In this document: piece after piece, positions 2,804 to 39,985 of the stretch
How the letters are laid out: every line of letters starts with the position of its first letter
Position numbering within the stretch: position 1 is the first letter of the stretch
Origin: an uncultured Gammaproteobacteria bacterium
GTDB taxonomy: Bacteria > Patescibacteriota > Microgenomatia > Levybacterales > GWA1-39-11
Assembly (NCBI GenBank): GCA_964452165.1
Contig: CAYVKP010000002.1
Location: forward strand, 24,074-88,073
Length of the DNA stretch: 64,000 bases
Direction of reading: 5' to 3'
The notes under the pieces: generated by a model
Told to the model about the DNA's origin: nothing
Database searches by the model: none
The model's input: the letters and a program-made list of their open reading frames with translations, nothing else
Translations under genes and position numbers: made by a program

Positions 2804-3304
2804 TTATTCAGTTTTGGTGAGGACTTTGTGGGCGCGGCGGCGTTTTGTTCGCTTTCTAAAATTCTCTGACAAAACGCTGATGTTTCCGTCGAGCTCTAAA
2901 ATTGCCAGGTCTACGTCCGCAATATTCTTTACTCCATGCTCGCGAACAACGGCATCCAGCTCGTCGTGCGAGATTTTTGCCTTATTGAGGTTTGCCGTTA
3001 TCTCTTTTCCTTCATAAATTAACATTAAAGCGTGGCCCTGAAAAAAAGCGGAAAAGCGGGCAGATTTATAGAAGAGAGTACCAAAAATGAAGTTTATGAC
3101 AAAAAGAGAAGCTGCGGCAATAAGTCCGCCAAGAAGAGAAGTGTTGTCCCCAACCATTGCGTTTTGAACAGCGTTTGAGATTAAAAGGATAAAGACAAGA
3201 TCGGTAATTGAGAGTTGCGCTATCTCGCGCTTTCCAAAAAGCCGGATAGCAACAACTATAAATACGTAGACCGCAACGGTTCTGATTAAGATCGGCAACA
3301 TCAT
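2804..3304 (-). CDS. DUF421/YetF-like membrane protein
   Basis: 166 aa. N-terminal TM helices with the ...GKREIAQLSITDLVFILLISNAV... motif characteristic of the YetF/DUF421 family. Confidence 0.7.
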   Translation of the reverse strand: MMLPILIRTVAVYVFIVVAIRLFGKREIAQLSITDLVFILLISNAVQNAMVGDNTSLLGGLIAAASLFVINFIFGTLFYKSARFSAFFQGHALMLIYEGKEITANLNKAKISHDELDAVVREHGVKNIADVDLAILELDGNISVLSENFRKRTKRRRAHKVLTKTE

Positions 3305-3319
3305 ATTTTCATTATACTC

Positions 3320-4117
3320 TTATCCTATAGAGCTTTGTGAAGCGCCTGTTTCAGCTTTTGTTTCAGTGCGTTTTTTAATCTCTTTTTTCCTCATTTTAGT
3401 TTTTGGCTGCTTGGGTTGGCCGGTTTTTCTACCCACGGGCTGTTCAAAAGACTCGGCCATTTCTTGTTCTTTGTCTTGTTTTTTCCTTAGTTCTTCTTCT
3501 TCCACCTCTTGCCTCGATGTTTTTATATTCGGATTTTCTCTTTTGACTCCGTACTGATTGACCTCGGCACGTTGATCTTGAGCGGCCATTTGGATTTGTT
3601 CGGCAGAGACGTTAGTCGTAAGTTTTTTATTATTAAAAACATTTACAACCGGGGCTTTTTGTTTTTCGTGCGAACCGAAAATCTGTTCTCCAATCTCGCT
3701 TTTAGACTTGGGAGTAGAATCGGCAGGACGCGCAATATCCTCAATGTTTTTACCGCGAAGCAAATCAGCATTCAAGTTTTGCGCGTTATCTTCTCCCGCG
3801 CCGGCGGGCTTTTGCACGTCTTCGACGTTTGCTCCTGACAAAAGTTTTGAATTAAGGTCGTGCGCTTCGTGAGTTGACTGGTCGGCCTTGCCAAGCCCTG
3901 CAATTTGTCCGAGTTCACGGACAATATCGGACTCTTTTTGAGGGACTGACTTTTCTCCCTCCGCAGCTTTTTTTACGGCATCATCTGTTGGAATGTCTGC
4001 GCCAAAAGCTTGCCTCATAAAATCTTCACCGGTATCGTTGACGGTATCAACAACTGCTTTTTTTGTCTCTCTGAATGGCGCCTCCAGAACATTTATTAAG
4101 GTTTTTTTTACGGACAT
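3320..4117 (-). CDS. hypothetical low-complexity, highly charged protein
   Basis: 265-aa ORF rich in K, E, D and Q with no hydrophobic segments. Likely intrinsically disordered. No family recognised. Confidence 0.5.
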   Translation of the reverse strand: MSVKKTLINVLEAPFRETKKAVVDTVNDTGEDFMRQAFGADIPTDDAVKKAAEGEKSVPQKESDIVRELGQIAGLGKADQSTHEAHDLNSKLLSGANVEDVQKPAGAGEDNAQNLNADLLRGKNIEDIARPADSTPKSKSEIGEQIFGSHEKQKAPVVNVFNNKKLTTNVSAEQIQMAAQDQRAEVNQYGVKRENPNIKTSRQEVEEEELRKKQDKEQEMAESFEQPVGRKTGQPKQPKTKMRKKEIKKRTETKAETGASQSSIG

Positions 4118-5381: not shown

Positions 5382-5423
5382 TCTGCAGCTCACCCTATAA
5401 TATAGTTGGTCAGCCTCCTGTTA

Positions 5424-5432
5424 TGCTATAAT
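5424..5432 (+). promoter_or_regulatory. putative extended -10 promoter element (TGCTATAAT) upstream of the GC-rich cassette
   Basis: Perfect TGnTATAAT in the 325-bp AT-rich spacer between htrA and the cassette. A second TATAAT lies at 5394-5399. The -35 match is weak. Confidence 0.3.
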
Positions 5433-5568
5433 CAGGCTACATTTGGAGCAATTTTCGGCGTTTGCATGCTGGATTTTTGTTCGAGGTGTTTCTTTAAACT
5501 TCTTTGCACATTAACAAGCTATTCAGTTTAAAAAATCTTCATCATAGGTGGAGCAGTGGACTTCAGTT

Positions 5569-5602
5569 AAATTCCAAAATCCAAATTCCAAATCTCAAAT
5601 TG
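5569..5602. repeat. short tandem repeat, 14-bp unit x ~2.4 (AAATTCCAAAATCC / AAATTCCAAATCTC / AAATTG)
   Basis: Direct tandem copies visible in the intergenic leader of the cassette. Confidence 0.4.
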
Positions 5603-5706
5603 TTCGAAAATTGGTGCTTGGCTATTGAAAATTACAAACTGAAGTTTGTTGTTCCATCTGTGATGGAAAATAAAAATTTGCTCAGTGCGAGCAGAAAGAA
5701 GGGTAC

Positions 5707-5916
5707 ATGAATATGGTTATTGGTTTAACCGCTGTGTTTGCCTTTGGGGTTCTGTTTCTGTGGTTTGGAACCACGGGCGGTGTGCTCAAGCAAACAGGCG
5801 ATGCATCAAGAGCCAAGATCTTTGGAGTCGCGTTTTGCGCGATCTCCCTAGCTCTGGGAGCTCTTAGCCTTATTGTCCCGCAACTCGGATGGTTATCCGA
5901 ACAAGTCTCATCCTGA
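5707..5916 (+). CDS. small membrane protein (69 aa, 2 TM), first gene of the GC-rich cassette
   Basis: Preceded by a short hairpin (TGCTC-AGTGC-GAGCA) and the SD AGAAAGAAGGG. Two hydrophobic helices. GC content well above the genome background. Confidence 0.55.
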   Translation: MNMVIGLTAVFAFGVLFLWFGTTGGVLKQTGDASRAKIFGVAFCAISLALGALSLIVPQLGWLSEQVSS

Positions 5917-5926
5917 GGAGGATGGA

Positions 5927-6211
5927 GTGAAAACATTCGCCAAGCTTGCCTCGGGGCTGCTGCTCATCGCGTATGCGATCAGAGTCGTGGTTCTCGCAGT
6001 AGGGGAGACTTTTCGTCAGGAAGACGAAGAGCCATGGATGCCCCACACAAAACTGCTCACGACATTTCCCGTGCGCATGGTAACGGCTGTGCTTTTGGAT
6101 ATAGTCCAGCTGCGCGACAAGATTCGTGAGCTCAAGAACTCGCCCCCAATGATGATTCTGCTCACCTACAACGACGCCGTAACTCGTGACATTCCCGAAC
6201 GTCGGGACTAG
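5927..6211 (+). CDS. small membrane-anchored protein (~94 aa), cassette gene 2
   Basis: A GTG start 5 nt after the SD GAGGAGG, which overlaps the stop of gene 1. The ORF-track version beginning at 5873 would overlap gene 1. One N-terminal TM helix. Confidence 0.5.
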   Translation: MKTFAKLASGLLLIAYAIRVVVLAVGETFRQEDEEPWMPHTKLLTTFPVRMVTAVLLDIVQLRDKIRELKNSPPMMILLTYNDAVTRDIPERRD

Positions 6212-6240
6212 CCCTCGTCAAAAAAACGAGGAGAGAAAGG
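6209..6240 (+). promoter_or_regulatory. conserved intergenic motif, copy 1: stop codon, hairpin and SD (TAGCCCTCGTCAAAAAAACGAGGAGAGAAAGG)
   Basis: The CCTCGT/ACGAGG stem, with a 7-nt A-rich loop, partly sequesters the AGGAG SD. The motif is near-identical to copy 2. Confidence 0.45.
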
Positions 6241-6249
6241 GAACGCGAA

Positions 6250-6543
6250 ATGAAGCTCATCAAGTTCGTCGTCGGGGCTCTATTGGGATCCTACATCGGT
6301 GCGTCGGCTGTTGAGGCCTATCGAGAAGCCGAAAAGGACAAGAAGGGAGCCCCTTGGGATGGTGACATCCAGAAGGTTCCAACGGCGGGTCTTGCTGTGA
6401 TCGTTCTCGTCTTTAATATTGTCGGCGATATCCTGGACTTCTCCGAAGAAGTGCTTGATACAATAGACAATATTGGTCACGTGGGATCTCGGCCACTCAG
6501 TCCGCCCAAATACCGTCGAACCAGACCGTACAGGGTCAGTTAG
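6250..6543 (+). CDS. small membrane protein (97 aa), cassette gene 3
   Basis: ATG preceded by a conserved stop-hairpin-SD motif. N-terminal and central hydrophobic helices. Confidence 0.55.
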   Translation: MKLIKFVVGALLGSYIGASAVEAYREAEKDKKGAPWDGDIQKVPTAGLAVIVLVFNIVGDILDFSEEVLDTIDNIGHVGSRPLSPPKYRRTRPYRVS

Positions 6544-6571
6544 CCCTCGCCTGAAAACGAGGAGAGAAAGG
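6541..6571 (+). promoter_or_regulatory. conserved intergenic motif, copy 2 (TAGCCCTCGCCTGAAAACGAGGAGAGAAAGG)
   Basis: Same architecture as copy 1 (CCTCG/CGAGG stem, with the SD in the 3' arm). 30 of 32 positions are conserved with copy 1. Confidence 0.45.
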
Positions 6572-6579
6572 TAAAGCTC

Positions 6580-7011
6580 ATGGTCCCCGCCAAGAAGCTA
6601 CTCGCGTTCATCGTTACCGCAGCGGCCTTTACGGTCGTCATGCTTGCGGTGCTTTTGGTGCCAGCAAGACTAGACAGCGCTGCGCCCTCACGGGTTGATA
6701 GCGCGGCTGCGCTCGAGCAAGGTCCGCCACCTACACCGATTCCCGCTCTAGCCAGCGTTGAAGAGGTAGTGAAGTACCTTGAAGAGTATCTGGGCCGTAG
6801 CGTTAAGGTTGAATGGAGTGGTCTTGACGAACGTAAGGACGGAGGAAAGCTAGGAGTTCAGTTCACGCTGGAACCGCGCGATCCCATGTTCTATGCAAGG
6901 TGTACGCACCCGGCTGCGGCTGTGTCAGAACTGCCGTGTAGCTTCGAGGGCCCGTACTATCCCACGCCAAGGTTTCGATTCGCTGACCCCGCACCCGTTG
7001 CAGACAGATAA
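6580..7011 (+). CDS. secreted or membrane-anchored Pro/Ala-rich protein (143 aa), cassette gene 4
   Basis: N-terminal signal peptide or TM segment (LLAFIVTAAAFTVVMLAVLLVPA), an internal repeat ARLDSAAPSRVDSAAAL, and a PPPTPIP linker. Composition resembles high-GC organisms. Confidence 0.55.
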   Translation: MVPAKKLLAFIVTAAAFTVVMLAVLLVPARLDSAAPSRVDSAAALEQGPPPTPIPALASVEEVVKYLEEYLGRSVKVEWSGLDERKDGGKLGVQFTLEPRDPMFYARCTHPAAAVSELPCSFEGPYYPTPRFRFADPAPVADR

Positions 7012-7031
7012 CCAGGAAGGAGAATAACGCT

Positions 7032-7295
7032 ATGTTTCCTCTGATCTTCGTGGTCTTGATAGCCGCCGGAGTGCTTCTTGCCGTTTTCGTGATGGCACGA
7101 CACGTTTACCGACGAAACAAGGCGGATAAAGCCCTCATCAGGTTTCGAGAGTGGAACTCGGGTAATGTACCCCTTCCTTCTCGCAGAACGGTCGATAACA
7201 GGTTCGAGGAGCTTCATCCGGGATACATCAGCGCGGAGCTGCATGATCTAAGGCATGAAATCCTGCATAAGATCAACGCACAGCGCCGTAGCTAG
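7032..7295 (+). CDS. small membrane protein (87 aa, one N-terminal TM), cassette gene 5
   Basis: SD AGGAAGGAG at 8 nt upstream. A hydrophobic N-terminus followed by a basic cytoplasmic tail. Confidence 0.5.
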   Translation: MFPLIFVVLIAAGVLLAVFVMARHVYRRNKADKALIRFREWNSGNVPLPSRRTVDNRFEELHPGYISAELHDLRHEILHKINAQRRS

Positions 7296-7323
7296 CCAGA
7301 TCTTCTGAGTAGAGAGGAGTACG

Positions 7324-7416
7324 ATGGAAAAAGCCATTATCATCGGGATTCTGTTTGTAGGATTCTGGACCGCGATCTCAATCGCCCAGCACTTCACGGA
7401 CAAGAAGCCCGCGTAG
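7324..7416 (+). CDS. micro-ORF, 30-aa single-TM peptide (MEKAIIIGILFVGFWTAISIAQHFTDKKPA), cassette gene 6
   Basis: SD AGAGGAG at 6 nt upstream. Below the ORF-track size cut-off. Fits the tight spacing of the cassette. Confidence 0.35.
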   Translation: MEKAIIIGILFVGFWTAISIAQHFTDKKPA

Positions 7417-7442
7417 TTCTGCCGCAGAGAGGAAGCAAGATC

Positions 7443-7721
7443 GTGCGCTTAGCTCTAGGGCTCATCCTCATCCTGGTCGGCATCGGAATTTTCTTACTCG
7501 GACCTGTTCTGTTTAGGGAGTGGTTCAAGAGAACACCTCAAAACGTCAAGTCAGGTCTGTTATGGTTGAATCCGATGCTAGTCTTGGTAGGTATCTGGGT
7601 GATTTTCGAACCTCCAGACGTTCTTGTGATAGTCGGGATGGTTTCGATGTGCATACTCGGAGTTCGGAACTTACTCAAGAGAGCTGTATTGCCTGAGTAC
7701 CACCAGGTTAAAACTGAATAG
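7443..7721 (+). CDS. small membrane protein (92 aa, ~3 TM), cassette gene 7
   Basis: GTG start with the SD AGAGGAAG. Strongly hydrophobic. The stop is embedded in the 12-bp palindrome TAGCGATCGCTA. Confidence 0.5.
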   Translation: MRLALGLILILVGIGIFLLGPVLFREWFKRTPQNVKSGLLWLNPMLVLVGIWVIFEPPDVLVIVGMVSMCILGVRNLLKRAVLPEYHQVKTE

Positions 7722-7774
7722 CGATCGCTAAATGCGGTGCAAAGAATTACGGGCTCGAGGAAGAGCAAGATCAG

Positions 7775-7909
7775 ATGAACTGTGGGGACATGCGTCTTCA
7801 CTTTACGCTTCATGCGTATTCATTTCTTCTTTCTTTTCTTCGGGCCCTTTTTCTTGACTATTGTTTTTTAGGCCTCAATTTTGTATCATTACGTTTGATC
7901 CTCGCATAA
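7775..7909 (+). CDS. possible micro-ORF (44 aa, hydrophobic) at the distal edge of the GC-rich island
   Basis: ATG preceded by GAGGAAG. Spans the GC to AT transition. Speculative. Confidence 0.2.
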   Translation: MNCGDMRLHFTLHAYSFLLSFLRALFLDYCFLGLNFVSLRLILA

Positions 7910-7924
7910 AGCGGGAAATTTTTT

Positions 7925-10452: not shown

Positions 10453-11043
10453 ATGGTTAAAGCAGAACATTATAGGTTTGCAGAGCAACAAATGCGAGAG
10501 TTCAGGGTTCATACAATTGCAGTACGAATCACTAAAGTTGATCGACTTGCTGATCAGATAGACGAAATAGATAGGAAAAATCCTGTAGTAAGGCTGTTTC
10601 AAAGAAGCGCCTTTGCGAGAGGATTGCTTGTCTCACGTATCGAACAAGAGGCTAGAGTAACAGATGATCAGGCAAAAACAGTAGACCTTATTGATGCGGC
10701 GGTGGGTTTGAAATTTACCGGAAGGGGGCCGGTGTCGCATAAAGACCATTTTAGGAGAATGCAGGGAATTGTTAACGGTGTTGAAGTCGACCTAATAGGT
10801 AGTTTGCCTCTCTCGGCAAATTCATGGAGAGTCTCAGGTATGGTTGGAGGTAAAGATGTAACGCATTATCCTCGCAAGCCAACAAATAAAACAGTACAAG
10901 ACTTTTTTGAGAGTATGTTGCCGGTTTTGGAAGAAAGAGAGCAGATAGCACAAGCTCAGCCCTTGCTGGAAGAAATGATGAGGGTTACGAGAAAAATTGC
11001 AAGAAGAGGAAACATTGGGGGTGTCCACCGAAGAAAACAATGA
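10453..11043 (+). CDS. hypothetical protein (196 aa)
   Basis: A long stop-free ORF in AT-rich DNA. Its 3' end overlaps the cysS start by 4 nt. No SD and no recognisable family. Confidence 0.45.
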   Translation: MVKAEHYRFAEQQMREFRVHTIAVRITKVDRLADQIDEIDRKNPVVRLFQRSAFARGLLVSRIEQEARVTDDQAKTVDLIDAAVGLKFTGRGPVSHKDHFRRMQGIVNGVEVDLIGSLPLSANSWRVSGMVGGKDVTHYPRKPTNKTVQDFFESMLPVLEEREQIAQAQPLLEEMMRVTRKIARRGNIGGVHRRKQ

Positions 11044-25729: not shown

Positions 25730-25769
25730 AAACCAACAAATTTTAATCATCACCAAAAAGTAGAGGAGT

Positions 25770-26090
25770 GGAGGCTAAAAATTATAGTTTGGGTCGATTT
25801 ATCAAGCTAAATCAATGATAGAGTTTGATATAGTTAATGTCCTATAATAAAATTACAATGTGGATATCTCTGGGATCAAGCCGTAATGTTTACTTTTCAC
25901 CGGCCTTAATTTAGCCTCGATTATACACCATGAGAGCAGTAGAGACTTTTCACGACTCTGCTCGAGTAGAAAATCTCATGCGTAAATCGTGCGTATTTAG
26001 CCTCGAAAATAGGAAAAAAACGAAAAAAATACGAAACTACTTCTCTCATGTGGTCTCCCACTAGGAATAAATACACTAAATTACAAATTT
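25770..26090. repeat. dispersed 9-12-bp motif GAGGCTAAA(AAT) in four copies within the ORF-free spacer
   Basis: Forward copies at 25770-25778 and 26082-26090. Reverse copies (TTTAGCCTC) at 25910-25918 and 25996-26004. The last three are spaced exactly 86 bp apart. An imperfect hairpin lies at 25934-25963. Confidence 0.4.
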
Positions 26091-26388
26091 TGAGGCTAAA
26101 AATAGCAATTTAGATTGATTTAATAAGTTAAACTACATATCCTCCGAGAGTAGGCGCTAAGCGTTCTTACAATTTATTTGCCAATTTGGGTGATGGATAC
26201 TCGCCGGTAGTGGTGACAATTGTTTAGTAAAATTTGTCCTAATAAGGGGTCAATGTACTCTTGCGGAAAGAGAACGTAATTAGCACTTATAGGGATACTT
26301 CTATTCCTTTAGGGCATTAGCATGTTTATAAAGAGTCTAAAAGAGACCCGGAGGACCGGTAGAGAACATATATAGCTTATGTCGTACA

Positions 26389-26416
26389 ATAATACTTTTA
26401 CGACATGGACGAGTGA
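26389..26416. repeat. perfect 8-bp-stem hairpin (ATGTCGTA - 12-nt loop - TACGACAT)
   Basis: Exact complementarity seen in the sequence. No U-tract follows, so it is not a canonical terminator. Confidence 0.35.
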
Positions 26417-26464
26417 CCTGAGAGTGTGCCTGGTTAGCCATCAATCATCATCGATTCTTCATTT

Positions 26465-26484
26465 TAATCAATAATTATTGATTA
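26465..26484. promoter_or_regulatory. perfect 20-bp palindrome TAATCAATAATTATTGATTA (candidate operator or protein-binding site)
   Basis: Exact dyad symmetry within the ORF-free spacer. Confidence 0.35.
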
Positions 26485-26688
26485 CTCTTTCTTGGATAAA
26501 TTAGTAGCAATTCTCTGTCTGTCATGTAAGCTTTATTTCTCCACTACTCTACTATAGGACGTAAATATTTTTTTCGTATTTTATTTTTTTTGATATTTTA
26601 TTTTTGTCTGAAAGTTTGTCGCTTGCTATAGACGATAAGATACTGGTTGTCTGTAGGAACAGGGCCTAGAAATCGATCCTCGCGGGGC

Positions 26689-28176: not shown

Positions 28177-29130
28177 ATGGAACAGAAGAAACTTTCTGAA
28201 CTTCAAGAATACATTCAAATGTTTCTTGAATATCTGGAGATTGAGAAAAACTCCTCAAAATTGACGGTTAGAAACTATAGATTATATCTAAAGAGATTTG
28301 CTGAATGGTTTGCAGAAAACCACGGGGATAAAGGGATAAAGGATATCAACGTCGATATCGTACGCAAATACAGACTCTTTTTATCTAATTGGGTAGATGA
28401 AAAAGGAATGACCTTAATGCGCGTTACACAAAGCTATTATATTATTGCGTTACGTTCTTTCCTAAGATTTTTAGTCAGAAATGACTATGAAACGTTATCT
28501 CCAGAAAAAATAGATTTGCCAAAATCTGAAAGTAAGTCCCTTAAATTCCTTGAGAAAGACCATTTAAAAAATCTGTTCGACGCTGTAGATATATCAAAAA
28601 ACGACGAGAAGGCACTGCGAGACAGAGCCATTTTGGAATTGTTGTTCTCAACGGGTCTTCGTGTATCGGAGTTGTCAAGGCTAAACAGGAATCAGATAAA
28701 TTTTGAAACACGAGAGTTTGGCGTAATTGGAAAAGGCGGACGTGCACGCGTCGTTTTCCTTTCAGATTCTGCAGCGCATTGGTTATCTGCATATTTTGAT
28801 AAACGTGAAGACCCTTGGAAGCCTACCTTTGTCAGATACAGTAAAGAAAAAAGCTATGAAAATGGGGGCGAAAAAATGCGCCTCACTCCGCGATCAGTAG
28901 AACGAATCGTTGAGAAATATGTTCGGCAGGCTCGAATTCCAGTCAAGGCAACACCGCATACTCTGCGCCACTCTTTCGCGACAGATCTGCTTTATAACGG
29001 TGCGGACTTAAGGTCTGTTCAGGAAATGTTGGGACACAAAAATATCTCCACAACTCAGATTTATACCCACGTTACAAACCCGCAACTTAAGGAAATTCAC
29101 AAAAAATTCCACCACGGTAACAGAAGGTAA
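28177..29130 (+). CDS. tyrosine recombinase, XerC/XerD family
   Basis: 317 aa. An N-terminal core-binding domain and a catalytic domain with R…HTLRHSFAT…LGH…Y (the RHRY tetrad context). Confidence 0.85.
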   Translation: MEQKKLSELQEYIQMFLEYLEIEKNSSKLTVRNYRLYLKRFAEWFAENHGDKGIKDINVDIVRKYRLFLSNWVDEKGMTLMRVTQSYYIIALRSFLRFLVRNDYETLSPEKIDLPKSESKSLKFLEKDHLKNLFDAVDISKNDEKALRDRAILELLFSTGLRVSELSRLNRNQINFETREFGVIGKGGRARVVFLSDSAAHWLSAYFDKREDPWKPTFVRYSKEKSYENGGEKMRLTPRSVERIVEKYVRQARIPVKATPHTLRHSFATDLLYNGADLRSVQEMLGHKNISTTQIYTHVTNPQLKEIHKKFHHGNRR

Positions 29131-30185: not shown

Positions 30186-31112
30186 CTATAATTCTAAAAC
30201 CCAGTTTTTGAATTCTACTTCGCTCTTGTAGTCTCTACTTGGATTGAGTGACTCATCAAGAAAGCCGCCAATGGCGCGAGAAGTAAGGACTGTTTTCAGT
30301 TTACCTTTGTCGTAGCCTCTATTGAGGAGTTCGCCATAAATTTTGATCGCAAGCTTCCTGTCGTCAATAATTGAAAATACTCTTTGAATAAAATAGCAGA
30401 TGTCATAATATTCTACTCCGTGGGAATGGGCGTGCTCGCCGTCAATTAGTCCGAGGCCGTTATTCGATAGCAAAATTAAATGCCATGGTGTAAAGTCTCC
30501 GTGACGAGGTTTCTTTTCTAGGACACTGGCTCCCCGTTCAACAATTTCGAACAATCGTTCTACGCCATATTTTTGAACTATTTCTTTAGGTATTGCATCG
30601 AGCCATGATTTGGTTTTGGCAACAAACCACTTCTGATGGTTACTCTCTTCAATTAGATCGTTGTTCGAAACATTTATAGGAAGACCCTGAATGAGTTCGG
30701 AAAACTCTATGATTTGTTCGACGTGTTGTCCGATGGTGTTATTTGAACCGTCAAGTTTACAAAGAAGTGGGCCGTTAAATTTTTCCACGATTATGTAATA
30801 AAAATCTTTGTACAAACCATCATCAAAATTTTTAGGAACTCTAAACTGTTCACTTTTGGAATATTTATTAAATTCATCATTCCAAAGCTTGTCGATCTGC
30901 GTCCTTGCTGAAATTCCCTCACTTGTGGCAAGCTTTAGAAAATATTCCTGTCCCTCGCGTTCGACAACTCCAATAACATGTCTGCCCTCTTGCCGCAGTT
31001 GGCCAACTTTATATTTTCCTTCCAACTCTTTTCTAATATCCGTGAGGTCCAGATTTCCAGCCAATCTGTAATCGAGAATTTTTCCGTCCTTTTTTAATTT
31101 GAAAGCGTCCAT
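30186..31112 (-). CDS. aminoglycoside-phosphotransferase-like (APH / protein-kinase-like fold) phosphotransferase
   Basis: 308 aa. Brenner motif …HGDFTPWHLI… and …LIDGEHA… (catalytic loop and Mg-binding D). Confidence 0.7.
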   Translation of the reverse strand: MDAFKLKKDGKILDYRLAGNLDLTDIRKELEGKYKVGQLRQEGRHVIGVVEREGQEYFLKLATSEGISARTQIDKLWNDEFNKYSKSEQFRVPKNFDDGLYKDFYYIIVEKFNGPLLCKLDGSNNTIGQHVEQIIEFSELIQGLPINVSNNDLIEESNHQKWFVAKTKSWLDAIPKEIVQKYGVERLFEIVERGASVLEKKPRHGDFTPWHLILLSNNGLGLIDGEHAHSHGVEYYDICYFIQRVFSIIDDRKLAIKIYGELLNRGYDKGKLKTVLTSRAIGGFLDESLNPSRDYKSEVEFKNWVLEL

Positions 31113-34303: not shown

Positions 34304-36853
34304 TTACGGGGAGACGGCAGTTGCCGAGGAGACCTTATCATTCTTATCTGAAAAGCGCATTAAGATTACACCCTGGGCGTTTCTCGACAACAGCGGCGTT
34401 GCGTTAAGCGGAATTTTAACAACCTGACCTTTGAGCGATGTCATAATAACTTCTGTTGCAGCAGGATCCAAGACTCCTGCAAAAACAATTTTTCCGGTCT
34501 TCTCATTTATGTTTTGGATCCTTACTCCTTGACCATTTCTTCTCTGGTTGCGGACCTCCGAGACTTTGCTTCTTTTTCCAAGACCGTTTTCGGCAACTAC
34601 CAAGAGTGTTGCAGTTTTGTCTCCCCCCGAGACTATATCCATACCAATGACAGTATCATCTCCAACTAGCTTAATTCCTCCAACGCCCTGCGAGGATCTT
34701 CCTGTTGATCTTATTTGTTTTTCTCCAAAGCAAATTATCTTCCCGTTTTTGGTAATGAGGACTATGTCGTCCTCGCCGCTTGAGAAATTGACCCATTGAA
34801 GACTATCTCCCGCCTCAAGCTTTATAGAAATAATTCCACCGCGTCTTATATTTGCAAATTCAGAGATGTTTGTTTTCTTAACCACTCCCTTTTCTGTTGC
34901 CATGACAATATGTTTGTTTTTGGCCTTCTCTTTTGGATTGTAAGTCAAAATAGATTGAATTTTCTCGCCCGCGGTTATATCAATCAAATTAACAATCGCA
35001 GTACCTTTTGAAATTCTTGATGCCTCTTCCATTTCAAAGACTCTTGTTTGATAGACCTTCCCAAGATTTGTGAAGAACAGAATATAGTCATGGGTTTGAG
35101 CATAAAGAATCTTGTCTATTGTATCTTCATCTTTGGTCCTCATACCCATAACTCCTTTTCCTCCTCTTGCTTGAGTTTTAAAACTCATCATGCTTTGGCG
35201 CTTAACGTATCCTGTTTGTGTCAAGGTTATAACCGTTGGCTCATTTTGAATTAAATCTTCGTCTGAAAATTCATCAACTTTTGATTTGTAAACTTTTGTA
35301 CGTCGGCTGTCCTCATACTTTTCCTTAATTTTTAGTAGCTCATCAGATACAACTTTCAGCATTTTCGCAGGATCTGTAAGAAGGCTTTCTAGGTAGTCGA
35401 TTGTCTCTTTGACCATATTCCATTCGTCTTGAATTTTTTCTCGTTCAAGGGCCGCAAGTCTGCGAAGTTGCATATCCAAAATTGCAATTGCTTGAAGCTC
35501 GGAAAGTTTGAATTTTGCCATAAGATTTTCTCTTGCGGCATCAGCGCTCGCACTCTTTTTAATTGTGTCGATCACTTCATCAATATTGTTTACGGCAATA
35601 AGGAGTCCGTCTAGGATATGAAGTCTTGCTCGTGCTTGTCGGAGTTCGAATTCGCTTCTCCTGGTTATTACTGTGAACCTGTGGTCAACGTAAGCATCGA
35701 GAATTGCTTTCAGATTGAGAGTTCTTGGAATTCCGTCAACTAGAGCAACGATATTTGCCGGAAACGACGTTTGAAGTGAAGTAAGTTTGAACAAATTGTT
35801 GAGAACTTTTCTAGGAGATGCATCGCGCTTAAGTTCGGCAACAACCCTAATTCCGTGTCTATCCGATTCATCGCGTAGATCTGTAAGTCCTTCAAGCCTC
35901 TTATCTTTTGCAAGTTCTGCAATTTTCGCAACTAACGCGGCCTTGTTTACTTGATACGGAACTTCACGGATTATAATTGCGCTTTTTCCTTGTCCGATAT
36001 CTTCAATTTCAGCAATTCCCCGTATGATAATTTTTCCGCGTCCTGTTCTGTAAACATTTTTAATTTCGTTGATGTCGTAAATTGCTCCTCCGGTTGGAAA
36101 ATCCGGTCCCTTTATAAATTCCAGAAGCTCATCAACTGACACCTCGGACTCAAGTTCAAAAGCGGGCTTCAGAGAATTAATCTGCTCGTCAGTTAGCTCT
36201 CCTTCCGGTCGCTTGTAGCCTTCGCGTGGTTTGTGTTTGATTTTGTCGATGGTGTATGTAACAGCATCAATTACCTCACCAAGATTGTGGGGCGGAATCT
36301 TAGTTGCCATTCCGACTGCAATTCCTTCAGATCCCATCAAGAGAAGGTTCGGCAATTTACTCGGAAGATAGACCGGCTCTTTGAGTGTTCCATCAAAGTT
36401 GGGTAGAAATTCAACGGTGCCCTTATCTATATCAAAGAGCATTTCCATTGCCATATTAGTGAGTTTTGCCTCCGTATAACGCATGGCGGCGGCAGAGTCT
36501 CCGTCCATAGAGCCAAAGTTACCCTGACCGTCCACGAGTGGATAGCGCATTGCAAAATCCTGAGCCAAGCGGACTAAAGTATCATAGATTGCCATATCAC
36601 CATGCGGGTGATATTTACCCATGGTTTCTCCGACAATCTTTGCAGATTTTGCGTACTTTGCCGTGGGGTATAAATTCATCTCATACATCGCATATAAAAT
36701 TCTGCGATGTACAGGTTTCAATCCGTCTTTAACGTCCGGCAATGCACGCGCGACTATGACGCTCATTGCGTAATCCAAATACGCTTTTTTTGCCTCAGTT
36801 GTAATGTCGATTTGTTGTAATCGACCTATTGCGTTTTTAACTTCTGGTTCCAT
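34304..36853 (-). CDS. gyrA: DNA gyrase subunit A
   Basis: 849 aa. …[30 protein letters not shown]… with the active-site Tyr region, plus C-terminal beta-pinwheel repeats. Confidence 0.95.
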
Positions 36854-37368
36854 TATTTATAATTTGCCATGCCTTTCTCAACTTCCGCAATGGCTTCTGC
36901 CGCGCCTTTCCAACCACTGACTTTAACCCATTTCCCGGGTTCGTTCTTTTTGTAATTCTCAAAGAAATATTTTATCTTATCTGTAATTTCGGCTGGGAGT
37001 TCGCTTATATCGTTGTACTTTCCAAACTCCGGGTTAACTTTTTCCGGTGGAACGGCGACCAGCTTTGCGTCTTGCCCGGATTCATCTTCTGTTTCAAGCA
37101 TTCCGATTGGCTTTGCTACCATCACTACTCCCGGTGTGACGGGTAAGGGTGATAAGACTAGAACATCAACCGGATCTCCATCTCCACTTAAAGTATTTGG
37201 AATAAATCCGTAATTTGCCGGATATCCTTTGTCAAAAAACAAAAAACGATCAACAAAAATCGCTTCGGTATCGTGATCGACTTCGTACTTTACTCTTGAA
37301 TCGAGTGGAACTTCAATTACTACGTTTACAATTTGAGGGGCTTTGTCCCCCGCTGTTAAATTCTTCAT
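36853..37368 (-). CDS. ppa: inorganic pyrophosphatase (family I)
   Basis: 171 aa. …DGDPVDVLV… signature. Confidence 0.9.
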
Positions 37369-39442: not shown

Positions 39443-39985
39443 TCACAGATTTTTCTTTAATGCAGCAAGTAGCTCGGGGAAAGTCTCTTTGTGATAGTCT
39501 CCGCCAAAATGCCCTTTATCCGCGAATTCATAATACTCTGTGTTTAGATTTTTGTGGATAAACCGAGCTTCTTCTATGGGGATCCATGGATCATCGGTAG
39601 AATTAAATTGGATAATAAATTTCTGGTTCTCTTTTATTGATTGCCAATCCCAAGGCTTATCAAAATATTCACTCTCTTTTTCTTTTTCATCATTAAGGTC
39701 TGTATAATATCCTCCCACCAATACTGAGCCGAGGATTTTATTATCCTCAGCAAATCTCATGGCAGCTATTGCTCCCGTGGAATGACCAATCAGTATCGTT
39801 TGCTCGTCGGCTCCCAAGCTTTTAATAAATGGTAACCAATACTTTGATCTCGCAATGTCGTTATCAGGAAAGTTCTTATCGATGACCCGTAAGCCGAGCT
39901 TGCCGAGCTCTTCTTTTAAATAAGGGAACCAATTATCATGGGGTGTCCCTCCTCCATTACCAGGAAGAAAAATTACTTTTGTCAT
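39443..39985 (-). CDS. alpha/beta-fold serine hydrolase (YdeN/RBBP9-like)
   Basis: 180 aa. A GHSTG nucleophile elbow. Confidence 0.75.
   Translation of the reverse strand: MTKVIFLPGNGGGTPHDNWFPYLKEELGKLGLRVIDKNFPDNDIARSKYWLPFIKSLGADEQTILIGHSTGAIAAMRFAEDNKILGSVLVGGYYTDLNDEKEKESEYFDKPWDWQSIKENQKFIIQFNSTDDPWIPIEEARFIHKNLNTEYYEFADKGHFGGDYHKETFPELLAALKKNL

Follow-up and report, generated by a model that had tools for sequence, protein, structure and literature searches.

A GC-rich insertion with genes for seven predicted small membrane proteins between htrA and rpsF of a Levybacteria-type genome

Genomes are known to carry small islets of foreign composition at fixed hotspots, and in replacement flexible genomic islands one locus carries different acquired gene sets in related genomes, often with envelope or surface functions. 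Members of the CPR (Candidate Phyla Radiation, Patescibacteria) have very small genomes and rely on other cells; import of genes into CPR genomes is known, and their gain of surface functions is poorly understood. Here we analyse a locus of this kind in a Levybacteria-type member of the Patescibacteria. The stretch of DNA studied (the window) comprises 64 kb of contig CAYVKP010000002.1, and the insert is its htrA-to-rpsF interval, 2.5 kb long (about 5382–7855), flanked on the left by htrA (Trypsin and PDZ domains) and on the right by rpsF. Its gene-bearing core (5707–7721) is called the island. A literature search turned up nothing on islets of this kind, nor on the sequencing runs that hold them.

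The interval is an insertion, its core is foreign in composition and in the style of its translation signals, its proteins are orphans, and a conserved non-coding frame surrounds it that holds an alternative cargo in a relative, locus L003. We read it as an accessory insertion, that is a foreign GC-rich core with seven small membrane-protein genes, set as replaceable cargo in a native-like non-coding frame, and give this reading a probability of about 0.58. What is new here is seven orphan membrane-protein families. Less usual are a conserved, structured leader and terminator that enclose unrelated cargoes, the lack of a mobility gene, a switched style of translation initiation and, for the sister islet, a traceable donor of Chloroflexota type.

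An insertion of foreign composition

In ten related loci, six from genomes (L004–L009) and four from metagenomes (L012–L015), only about 60–80 nt separate the stop of htrA from the start of rpsF, and the spacer is essentially the rpsF promoter; the 2.5-kb stretch of the window is therefore an insertion. As the rpsF promoter is intact at 7856–7900, the insert spans about 5382–7855. The search for a filled htrA–rpsF interval in related genomes thus gave ten empty sites and one relative, L003, with a different islet. Across the approximately 220 kb of Levybacteria loci examined, GC-rich islets (GC, guanine plus cytosine) were seen at the htrA/rpsF junction only.

An abrupt change of GC content in a metagenome contig is a classic warning sign of a chimera, in which assembly or binning would have joined high-GC DNA of another organism to a Levybacteria contig. 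In the assemblies of runs SRR9179560 and SRR9179562, however, the region recurs with identities of 100% and 99.97%: an 11.8-kb per-run contig (L001) crosses both junctions with 100% identity, and a 3.0-kb contig (L002) crosses the right one. Because two other runs assemble identical junctions, the region is not an assembly artefact. Similarly, the L003 islet is recovered in three runs, the non-coding ends of the insert are native-like in composition, and the rpsF promoter follows in its conserved position. A chimera is therefore scarcely credible.

Sliding-window scans of GC content and tetranucleotide usage both singled out the island. Its GC content is 0.528, compared with 0.412 in the remaining window, and reaches 0.578 in 500-nt windows; it is the sole stretch of the 64 kb in which GC exceeds 0.49, and it is the strongest tetranucleotide outlier (z about 5). 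Third codon positions hold most of the excess (GC3 0.58 in the island versus 0.37 in native genes); since GC at second positions is nearly equal (GC2 0.40 versus 0.38), the excess is largely synonymous. Relative synonymous codon usage of the island is uncorrelated with that of native genes (r = 0.03), compared with r = 0.43 for the L003 islet and 0.35 for a donor-type locus of 56% GC. Likewise, after correction for composition, the di- and trinucleotide signatures place the island nearer to the L003 islet and to loci with a Dehalococcoidia label, for which r reaches 0.83 and 0.72, than to native DNA, for which it is 0.66 and 0.50. Both the base composition and the codon usage of the island are thus deviant, as in genomic islets, and these data support the view that its DNA is foreign-looking and laterally acquired.

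The translation signals differ in the same sense. A purine-rich Shine–Dalgarno sequence (SD) precedes all seven island starts, with a free energy of pairing to the anti-SD (dG) of -5.5 to -11.5 kcal/mol, whereas among 58 native proxy genes only 8.6% attain -6. About 14 of these 58 genes carry TATAAT, often as TGnTATAAT, at most 17 nt upstream of the start and look leaderless (examples are 2804–3304(-), 24206, 29167, 30186–31112(-), 39443–39985(-), 44164, 59304 and 61726), and the native operon genes at 46.7–52 kb overlap stop to start rather than use SDs. One native gene, for inorganic pyrophosphatase (36853–37368, - strand), has a near-perfect SD, TAGGAGGTGA (dG -14.5), so that the ribosome of this organism can presumably use SDs, though it rarely does. 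In conclusion, the original prediction of a GC-rich, compositionally foreign insertion between htrA and rpsF, with strong SDs on its genes and none on many native ones, agrees with all these measurements.

Seven small genes and their orphan products

Seven co-directional open reading frames (ORFs) of 30–143 aa, P1 to P7, lie on the + strand of the island, separated by gaps of 10, 38, 36, 20, 28 and 26 nt (Table 1). The original prediction had counted seven or eight packed micro-genes with membrane-anchored or secreted products. Seven are retained here. The candidate eighth (7732–7857 or 7775–7909) sits within the conserved putative terminator hairpin and its frame is not retained in L003, as judged from the two sequences compared by eye; it was therefore not counted as a gene. 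For the 3' tail, a small conserved ORF was considered on both strands and rejected, as the reading frames of the window do not agree with those of L003 (also by eye). The predicted location of the products did hold: by Kyte–Doolittle (KD) hydropathy each of the seven has at least one transmembrane (TM) segment, and an N-terminal hydrophobic helix is always among them. The predicted ARLDSAAPS/RVDSAAAL repeat and Pro/Ala-rich stretch are found in the linker of P4, which also has a PPPTPIP stretch.

Table 1. Features of the insert and its right border (window coordinates; dG in kcal/mol)
Feature	Position	Strand	Description
5' leader	5382–5706	+	325 nt, AT-rich, non-coding; missing at the empty sites of relatives
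TGnTATAAT box TGCTATAAT	5424–5432	+	putative promoter; conserved in L003
Leader hairpins	5440–5488; 5540–5568/5637–5665; 5677–5692		49-nt hairpin; long hairpin (arms given); short hairpin abutting the P1 SD
P1	5707–5916	+	69 aa (67 aa from second ATG, 5713); TM 3–21, 38–56; SD AGAAAGAAGGG, dG -5.5
P2	5927–6211	+	94 aa, GTG start; TM 7–25 anchor, then charged soluble tail; SD GAGGAGG, dG -11.5
Junction module 1	6209–6249	+	TAG stop, CCCTCG-loop-CGAGG hairpin, SD AGAGAAAGG; direct repeat of 6541–6579
P3	6250–6543	+	97 aa; two hydrophobic segments, basic C-terminus
Junction module 2	6541–6579	+	second copy: TAG, CCCTCG hairpin, SD AGAGAAAGG
P4	6580–7011	+	143 aa; N-terminal signal-anchor-like helix, Pro/Ala-rich linker, domain of about 90 aa with two Cys
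P5	7032–7295	+	87 aa; very hydrophobic N-terminal helix, TM 4–22, KD 3.13, basic tail; SD GGAAGGAG, dG -9.4
P6	7324–7416	+	30-aa single-helix peptide, TM 4–22; SD AGAGGAG, dG -8.6
P7	7443–7721	+	92 aa, GTG start, three hydrophobic segments; called in independent assembly too
3' tail	7710–7855	+	14-mer AAAACTGAATAGCG (7710–7723) overlapping the P7 stop; long imperfect hairpin 7742–7855, core 7751–7846, then U-run
Native rpsF promoter	7856–7924	+	TTGTTT ... TGTATCAT, -10 at 7884–7889; right edge of insert

It could be argued that the captured DNA is not coding, or no longer so, that the ORFs are by-products of a GC-rich sequence poor in stop codons, or that they arose very recently de novo, in a decaying region or one that acts as RNA only. 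None of the proteins has a homologue, P4 folds poorly (its AF2 model has a mean confidence, pLDDT, of 54.7 and is unusable), and GC-rich DNA readily yields long antisense ORFs, here with 69% tiling of the - strand; furthermore, the weak alignment of the window and L003 cores described below appears, by eye, to fall partly in different frames of the two islands. Tiling of the + strand, however, is 90% and exceeds that of every one of 1000 first-order Markov sequences matched to it in composition (mean 61%, maximum 88.8%), and the codon-position signature of coding DNA (G1 0.36, T2 0.37) is like that of native genes. All seven ORFs combine a correctly spaced SD with an N-terminal hydrophobic helix; six of them were picked up independently by gene calling in public collections, and the start of P2 is the same as called in the independent assembly. 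No Pfam family matched the antisense ORFs of the island, and no Rfam family was found in the region. Taken together, these observations make a non-coding region improbable: P1 to P7 are most probably genuine genes, coding for small proteins in the membrane or anchored to it.

An exhaustive HMMER scan of 1.84 billion cluster representatives with the concatenated P1–P7 returned only six self matches, P6 not being matched even to itself. A search of 5.8 billion clusters with P4 alone retrieved P4 and nothing else, and the looked-up clusters of P3, P4 and P7 are singletons; in all, the island proteins have no homologue among about 15 billion proteins. Searches of P1–P7 against Pfam, PHROGs, PADLOC, NCBIfam and the PDB gave nothing above noise, P4 having no PDB match. 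The earlier statement that no known family could be recognised among the products therefore holds at this scale. Paralogy within the set was considered because of the junction repeat at P2 and P3, and was rejected (best z 2.3–2.5 of 55 pairs, not significant).

Tight clusters of SD-led genes for small membrane proteins of atypical composition typify phage accessory regions, and a prophage or mobile-element remnant, such as a lysis/holin, superinfection-exclusion or moron cassette, would have this appearance. No family of the PHROG collection matched at E < 1e-3 (the best match, E = 0.0017, covers 34 residues of a function-unknown family), tblastn against 50,697 phage records (INPHARED) and blastn against 72,556 plasmids gave no match, and scans of IMG/VR found no relatives of P2, P3, P4 or L003 Q4. 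The 30 larger ORFs of the annotated part (1–41 kb) include no endolysin, integrase, terminase or other phage gene. Neither a tRNA nor an att repeat was found at the borders, the nearest tRNAs, at 15.7 and 16.4 kb, being at least 8 kb from the island, and Q3, the one gene of the sister islet that can be traced, derives from the setting of a bacterial chromosome. The chance of a phage origin, which had been suggested earlier, is accordingly slim. The actinobacterial origin proposed with it found no support either: the only donor that can be traced, that of L003 Q3, is a lineage of 56–66% GC with one member labelled Dehalococcoidia.

The sole recombinase in the annotated part of the window is of XerC/D type (28177–29130, + strand; Phage_integrase and SAM_1 domains), at a distance of 20 kb from the island.

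The conserved frame and the sister islet

At the htrA/rpsF site, L003 carries a 1.9-kb insert with GC up to 0.58 (versus about 0.40) and GC3 of 0.51–0.66 (versus 0.28–0.30), with four SD-led ORFs (Q1–Q4), three of whose products are hydrophobic. Its core proteins are about 73% identical to those of the window. The L003 islet was recovered in three per-run assemblies (L031–L033, from SRR9179560, SRR9179562 and SRR9179563), including both runs that hold the window island; the two organisms therefore co-occur. Cargo differs between conserved flanks, as in replacement-type islands: there are seven genes in the window and four in L003, the two cores show no significant protein or DNA similarity, and the non-coding flanks are homologous. 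The insert thus includes, beyond what had been predicted, a conserved non-coding frame (the 325-nt leader and the long terminator hairpin) common to a second cargo.

The leaders of the window and L003 are homologous and colinear (local score 53 versus a maximum of 47 in 614 real-sequence controls; z = 5.5 versus shuffles). The window leader folds at -81.5 kcal/mol (z = -5.0), and a tandem heptamer, (AAATTCC)n with 4.7 copies at 5569–5601, forms the apical part or loop of its long hairpin. No Pfam match was obtained for an ORF inside the leader, and a consensus scan found no promoter inside the gene array.

The 3' tails are homologous as well (score 40 versus a maximum of 38 in 1002 real-sequence controls; semi-global z = 6.6). 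The window tail folds at -63.8 kcal/mol (z = -6.9) and its L003 counterpart has z = -5.4; both form a long hairpin followed by a U-run. A consensus fold has 26 pairs, four of them with compensatory changes, a count of little statistical power as it comes from two sequences only; the conserved blocks AGGAAGA/TCTTCTT and ATGAA/TTCAT pair with each other. The tail hairpin is a putative terminator or insulator ahead of the rpsF promoter. Rfam gave nothing at gathering thresholds and, at E <= 1, only a chance microRNA-precursor hairpin (21.6 bits versus a gathering score of 230). A search of IMG/VR with the tail motif matched one high-GC phage coding region without further resemblance, which by a rough estimate is about the number expected by chance. 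An invertible segment was also considered, since the 15-mers GCTATTCAGTTTAAA (5518–5532) and TTAAAACTGAATAGC (7708–7722) form inverted repeats that bracket the genes, and was rejected: two such matches with at most two mismatches occur by chance in 26% of shuffles, and by eye the left copy is not conserved in L003.

The rpsF promoter is kept in all relatives, those with empty sites included (window versus L003, score 55; control maximum 38). An extra short hairpin is present in the 5' untranslated region of rpsF only in the two island-bearing genomes (CCTCGCATAAAGCGGG at 7895–7915 of the window, CCTCCGGCTTTGGAGG at about 12950–12975 of L003), and in the empty-site relatives the spacing from the -10 box to the rpsF start is much shorter than in the island bearers.

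Within the cores, one junction design recurs, in which the stop, TAG in most cases, is followed by CC, a short GC hairpin and an SD of the form AGAGAAAGRG; the window has two such junctions and L003 has one (Q3 to Q4). Neither the window nor L003 is enriched in the motif AGAAAGRRG, although this pattern misses the actual AGAGAAAGG copies.

These shared elements bear on an alternative in which the insert is an old, vertically inherited, lineage-specific operon, whose cargo has diverged beyond recognition and whose GC content and SDs are kept by selection (for instance for internal starts and for mRNA structure on a long, leadered, polycistronic transcript in an organism that is otherwise leaderless). 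Leader and tail are homologous, with a divergence about equal to that of the neighbouring genes, mobility genes are missing, no donor was found for P1–P7, and the junction of TAG, hairpin and AGAGAAAGRG is found in both islands, with a weak colinear alignment over one junction (window 6110–6403 versus L003 12127–12387). This alignment has a score of 53 and beat 400 of 400 shuffles. However, unrelated GC-rich coding DNA scored 52–54 in 2 of 42 chunks, so that the alignment was rejected as evidence of homology between the cores. The GC excess is, moreover, mainly synonymous, with a codon usage uncorrelated with that of native genes; gene number and content differ between the two islands, and the insert is absent from ten related loci. 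Finally, L003 Q3 is nested in a family native to high-GC genomes. We consider vertical inheritance unlikely.

Q3 is a stand-alone Lrp/AsnC RAM domain (PF01037, AsnC_trans_reg; E = 5.9e-14, full domain, 52 bits versus a cut-off of 25) with 364 relatives at E <= 1e-5; the best 120 of the 364 are 71–84% identical, and many are 79-aa proteins at 75–84%. In every case examined, the relatives lie in a conserved chromosomal neighbourhood: upstream of them come a CBS-domain gene and, in most cases, POR genes, and downstream come genes for TPR, methyltransferase, CtpB and SmpB proteins. These examined loci have 56–66% GC and AGGAG-type SDs, complete contigs measure about 3–3.4 Mb, and one is labelled Dehalococcoidia (Chloroflexota). 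At the DNA level, Q3 is 71–77% similar to its relatives; because this similarity is limited to the coding sequence, a gene-sized piece was captured. For the sister islet, Q3 is direct proof of import from a high-GC, non-CPR bacterium.

Several observations weigh against the reading of P1–P7 as foreign cargo in a reusable frame. First, a donor lineage is traceable only for L003 Q3; none was found for any of P1–P7, though donors from the same community would be expected in the collections searched. Second, the borders of the insert show no mobility gene, tRNA, att direct repeat or target duplication. Third, the frame has diverged about like the neighbouring genes, which implies an old slot, yet GC3 has not been ameliorated. 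Fourth, with two instances of the frame only and a star-like five-protein tree, in which sisterhood of the window and L003 is not shown, a single acquisition followed by losses would fit as well as repeated capture. The weak core-to-core alignment across one junction may also reflect some shared core ancestry, and the independent assemblies, at 99.97–100% identity, show no population variation for a ratio of non-synonymous to synonymous substitutions (dN/dS). That the slot passed recently from one of the two Levybacteria to the other by homologous recombination was considered and rejected: the identity between the window and L003 is about 0.6–0.7 in htrA and in rpsF–ctpB, shows no local rise and is not above that of empty-site taxa.

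On the accessory-insertion reading, the locus would work as follows. The native-like, AT-rich frame has a promoter-like TGnTATAAT box, a structured leader of about 270–320 nt and, before the rpsF promoter, a hairpin of about 100 nt with a U-run. Transcription from the leader promoter would give one polycistronic mRNA of seven cistrons, each presumably translated from its own strong SD, in several cases after a small hairpin, whereas host genes are mostly SD-less, leaderless-looking or coupled stop to start. The long hairpin would terminate the transcript and insulate the rpsF promoter. The products would be inserted in the membrane, as small bitopic or polytopic proteins together with P4, which may be membrane-anchored or secreted and has two Cys. 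The cargo would derive from high-GC, SD-using organisms and would have been exchanged, or acquired independently, in the two co-occurring species.

As to function, we suggest tentatively, and at well below even odds, that the products act jointly in the cytoplasmic membrane or envelope as a fast-turnover surface accessory module and not as a housekeeping complex; host-cell contact or resistance to phage or foreign DNA are possible roles. A known anti-phage defence system was looked for and rejected, as PADLOC matched no family at E <= 0.1 for P1–P7, Q1, Q2 and Q4.

A bolder extension, which we regard as improbable, is that the frame is a dedicated capture-and-expression slot, in which gene-sized DNA from neighbouring high-GC bacteria (perhaps a Chloroflexota host of these putative episymbionts) is repeatedly inserted and replaced, in the manner of an integron without integrase or attC. 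Each piece would gain a hairpin and SD module, by means of which an SD-poor, leaderless-type organism could translate it. If such a recurrent capture site exists, it would offer reduced genomes a simple, recombinase-independent way to sample foreign genes, and the traceable donor could point to the host of Levybacteria. If it does not, the locus would be an ordinary small genomic islet with seven new orphan membrane-protein families. The locus clearly shows import of non-CPR high-GC DNA at a fixed site, beside genes for an envelope protease and a ribosomal protein, with an initiation style foreign to the recipient.

Other features of the window and of the related contigs were recorded. For the neighbouring genes at 3320–4117 (- strand; 265 aa, very rich in charged residues) and 10453–11043 (+ strand; 196 aa), Pfam gave no match at E <= 1e-5. 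Second in strength among the tetranucleotide outliers is a stretch of about 960 nt at 25730–26688 without an ORF of at least 52 aa, which a DUF5656 membrane gene and a trehalase gene flank; it holds GAGGCTAAAAA (25771, 26094) and its complement TTTAGCCTCG (25912, 25998), and Rfam gave no match to it at E <= 1. Four contigs of metagenome-assembled genomes (L003, L006, L009 and L010) are titled 'uncultured Gammaproteobacteria bacterium'. Their htrA–rpsF–ssb–rpsR–ctpB sequences are 56–73% identical to those of the window, like those of Levybacteria- or Patescibacteria-labelled contigs, and the Gammaproteobacteria labels are probably wrong.

Comparison with known systems

Phage moron, lysis and superinfection-exclusion cassettes resemble the island in the dense clustering of small membrane proteins, in having strong ribosome-binding sites of their own and in their atypical composition. 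They differ from it in that the window island has no phage gene, PHROG or phage-database match, integrase or att site. P6, with 30 aa and one helix, is of the size of a type I toxin, a short hydrophobic peptide controlled in such toxin–antitoxin systems by an overlapping antisense RNA; no antisense promoter was predicted over it. Stand-alone Lrp/AsnC RAM proteins are relevant to L003 only: in the donors the gene lies in a chromosomal neighbourhood, whereas Q3 lies among small membrane ORFs and has no counterpart in the window.

The likeness to integron arrays is one of layout, with a promoter-like element followed by apparently promoterless, co-directional, short, mostly orphan ORFs of foreign composition, a structured element at the 3' end and, for L003 Q3, capture of a gene-sized piece. 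The attC sites of integrons are imperfect inverted repeats of roughly 55–140 nt. In the island, by contrast, the gaps of 10–38 nt hold hairpins of at most 5–6 bp, the single long hairpin comes only after the last gene, and no attI was recognised. An integron was ruled out by the missing adjacent intI (the neighbours are housekeeping genes, and the only candidate in the annotated 1–41 kb is the distant XerC/D-type gene) and by the lack of attC between the ORFs.

Unlike with replacement flexible genomic islands, the comparison here is not between strains but between species about 73% identical in core proteins, and the flanking core genes show no raised identity such as homologous recombination would leave. 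The window island is also unlike them in its size of 2 kb and in carrying orphan mini-proteins only, and the conserved parts inside the insert are a structured leader and a terminator hairpin. In other respects the window island follows the pattern of this class: GC content and codon usage are atypical, the insert is absent from relatives, it occupies a fixed site between core genes, an alternative cargo is present in L003, and the products are predicted to be located in the envelope.

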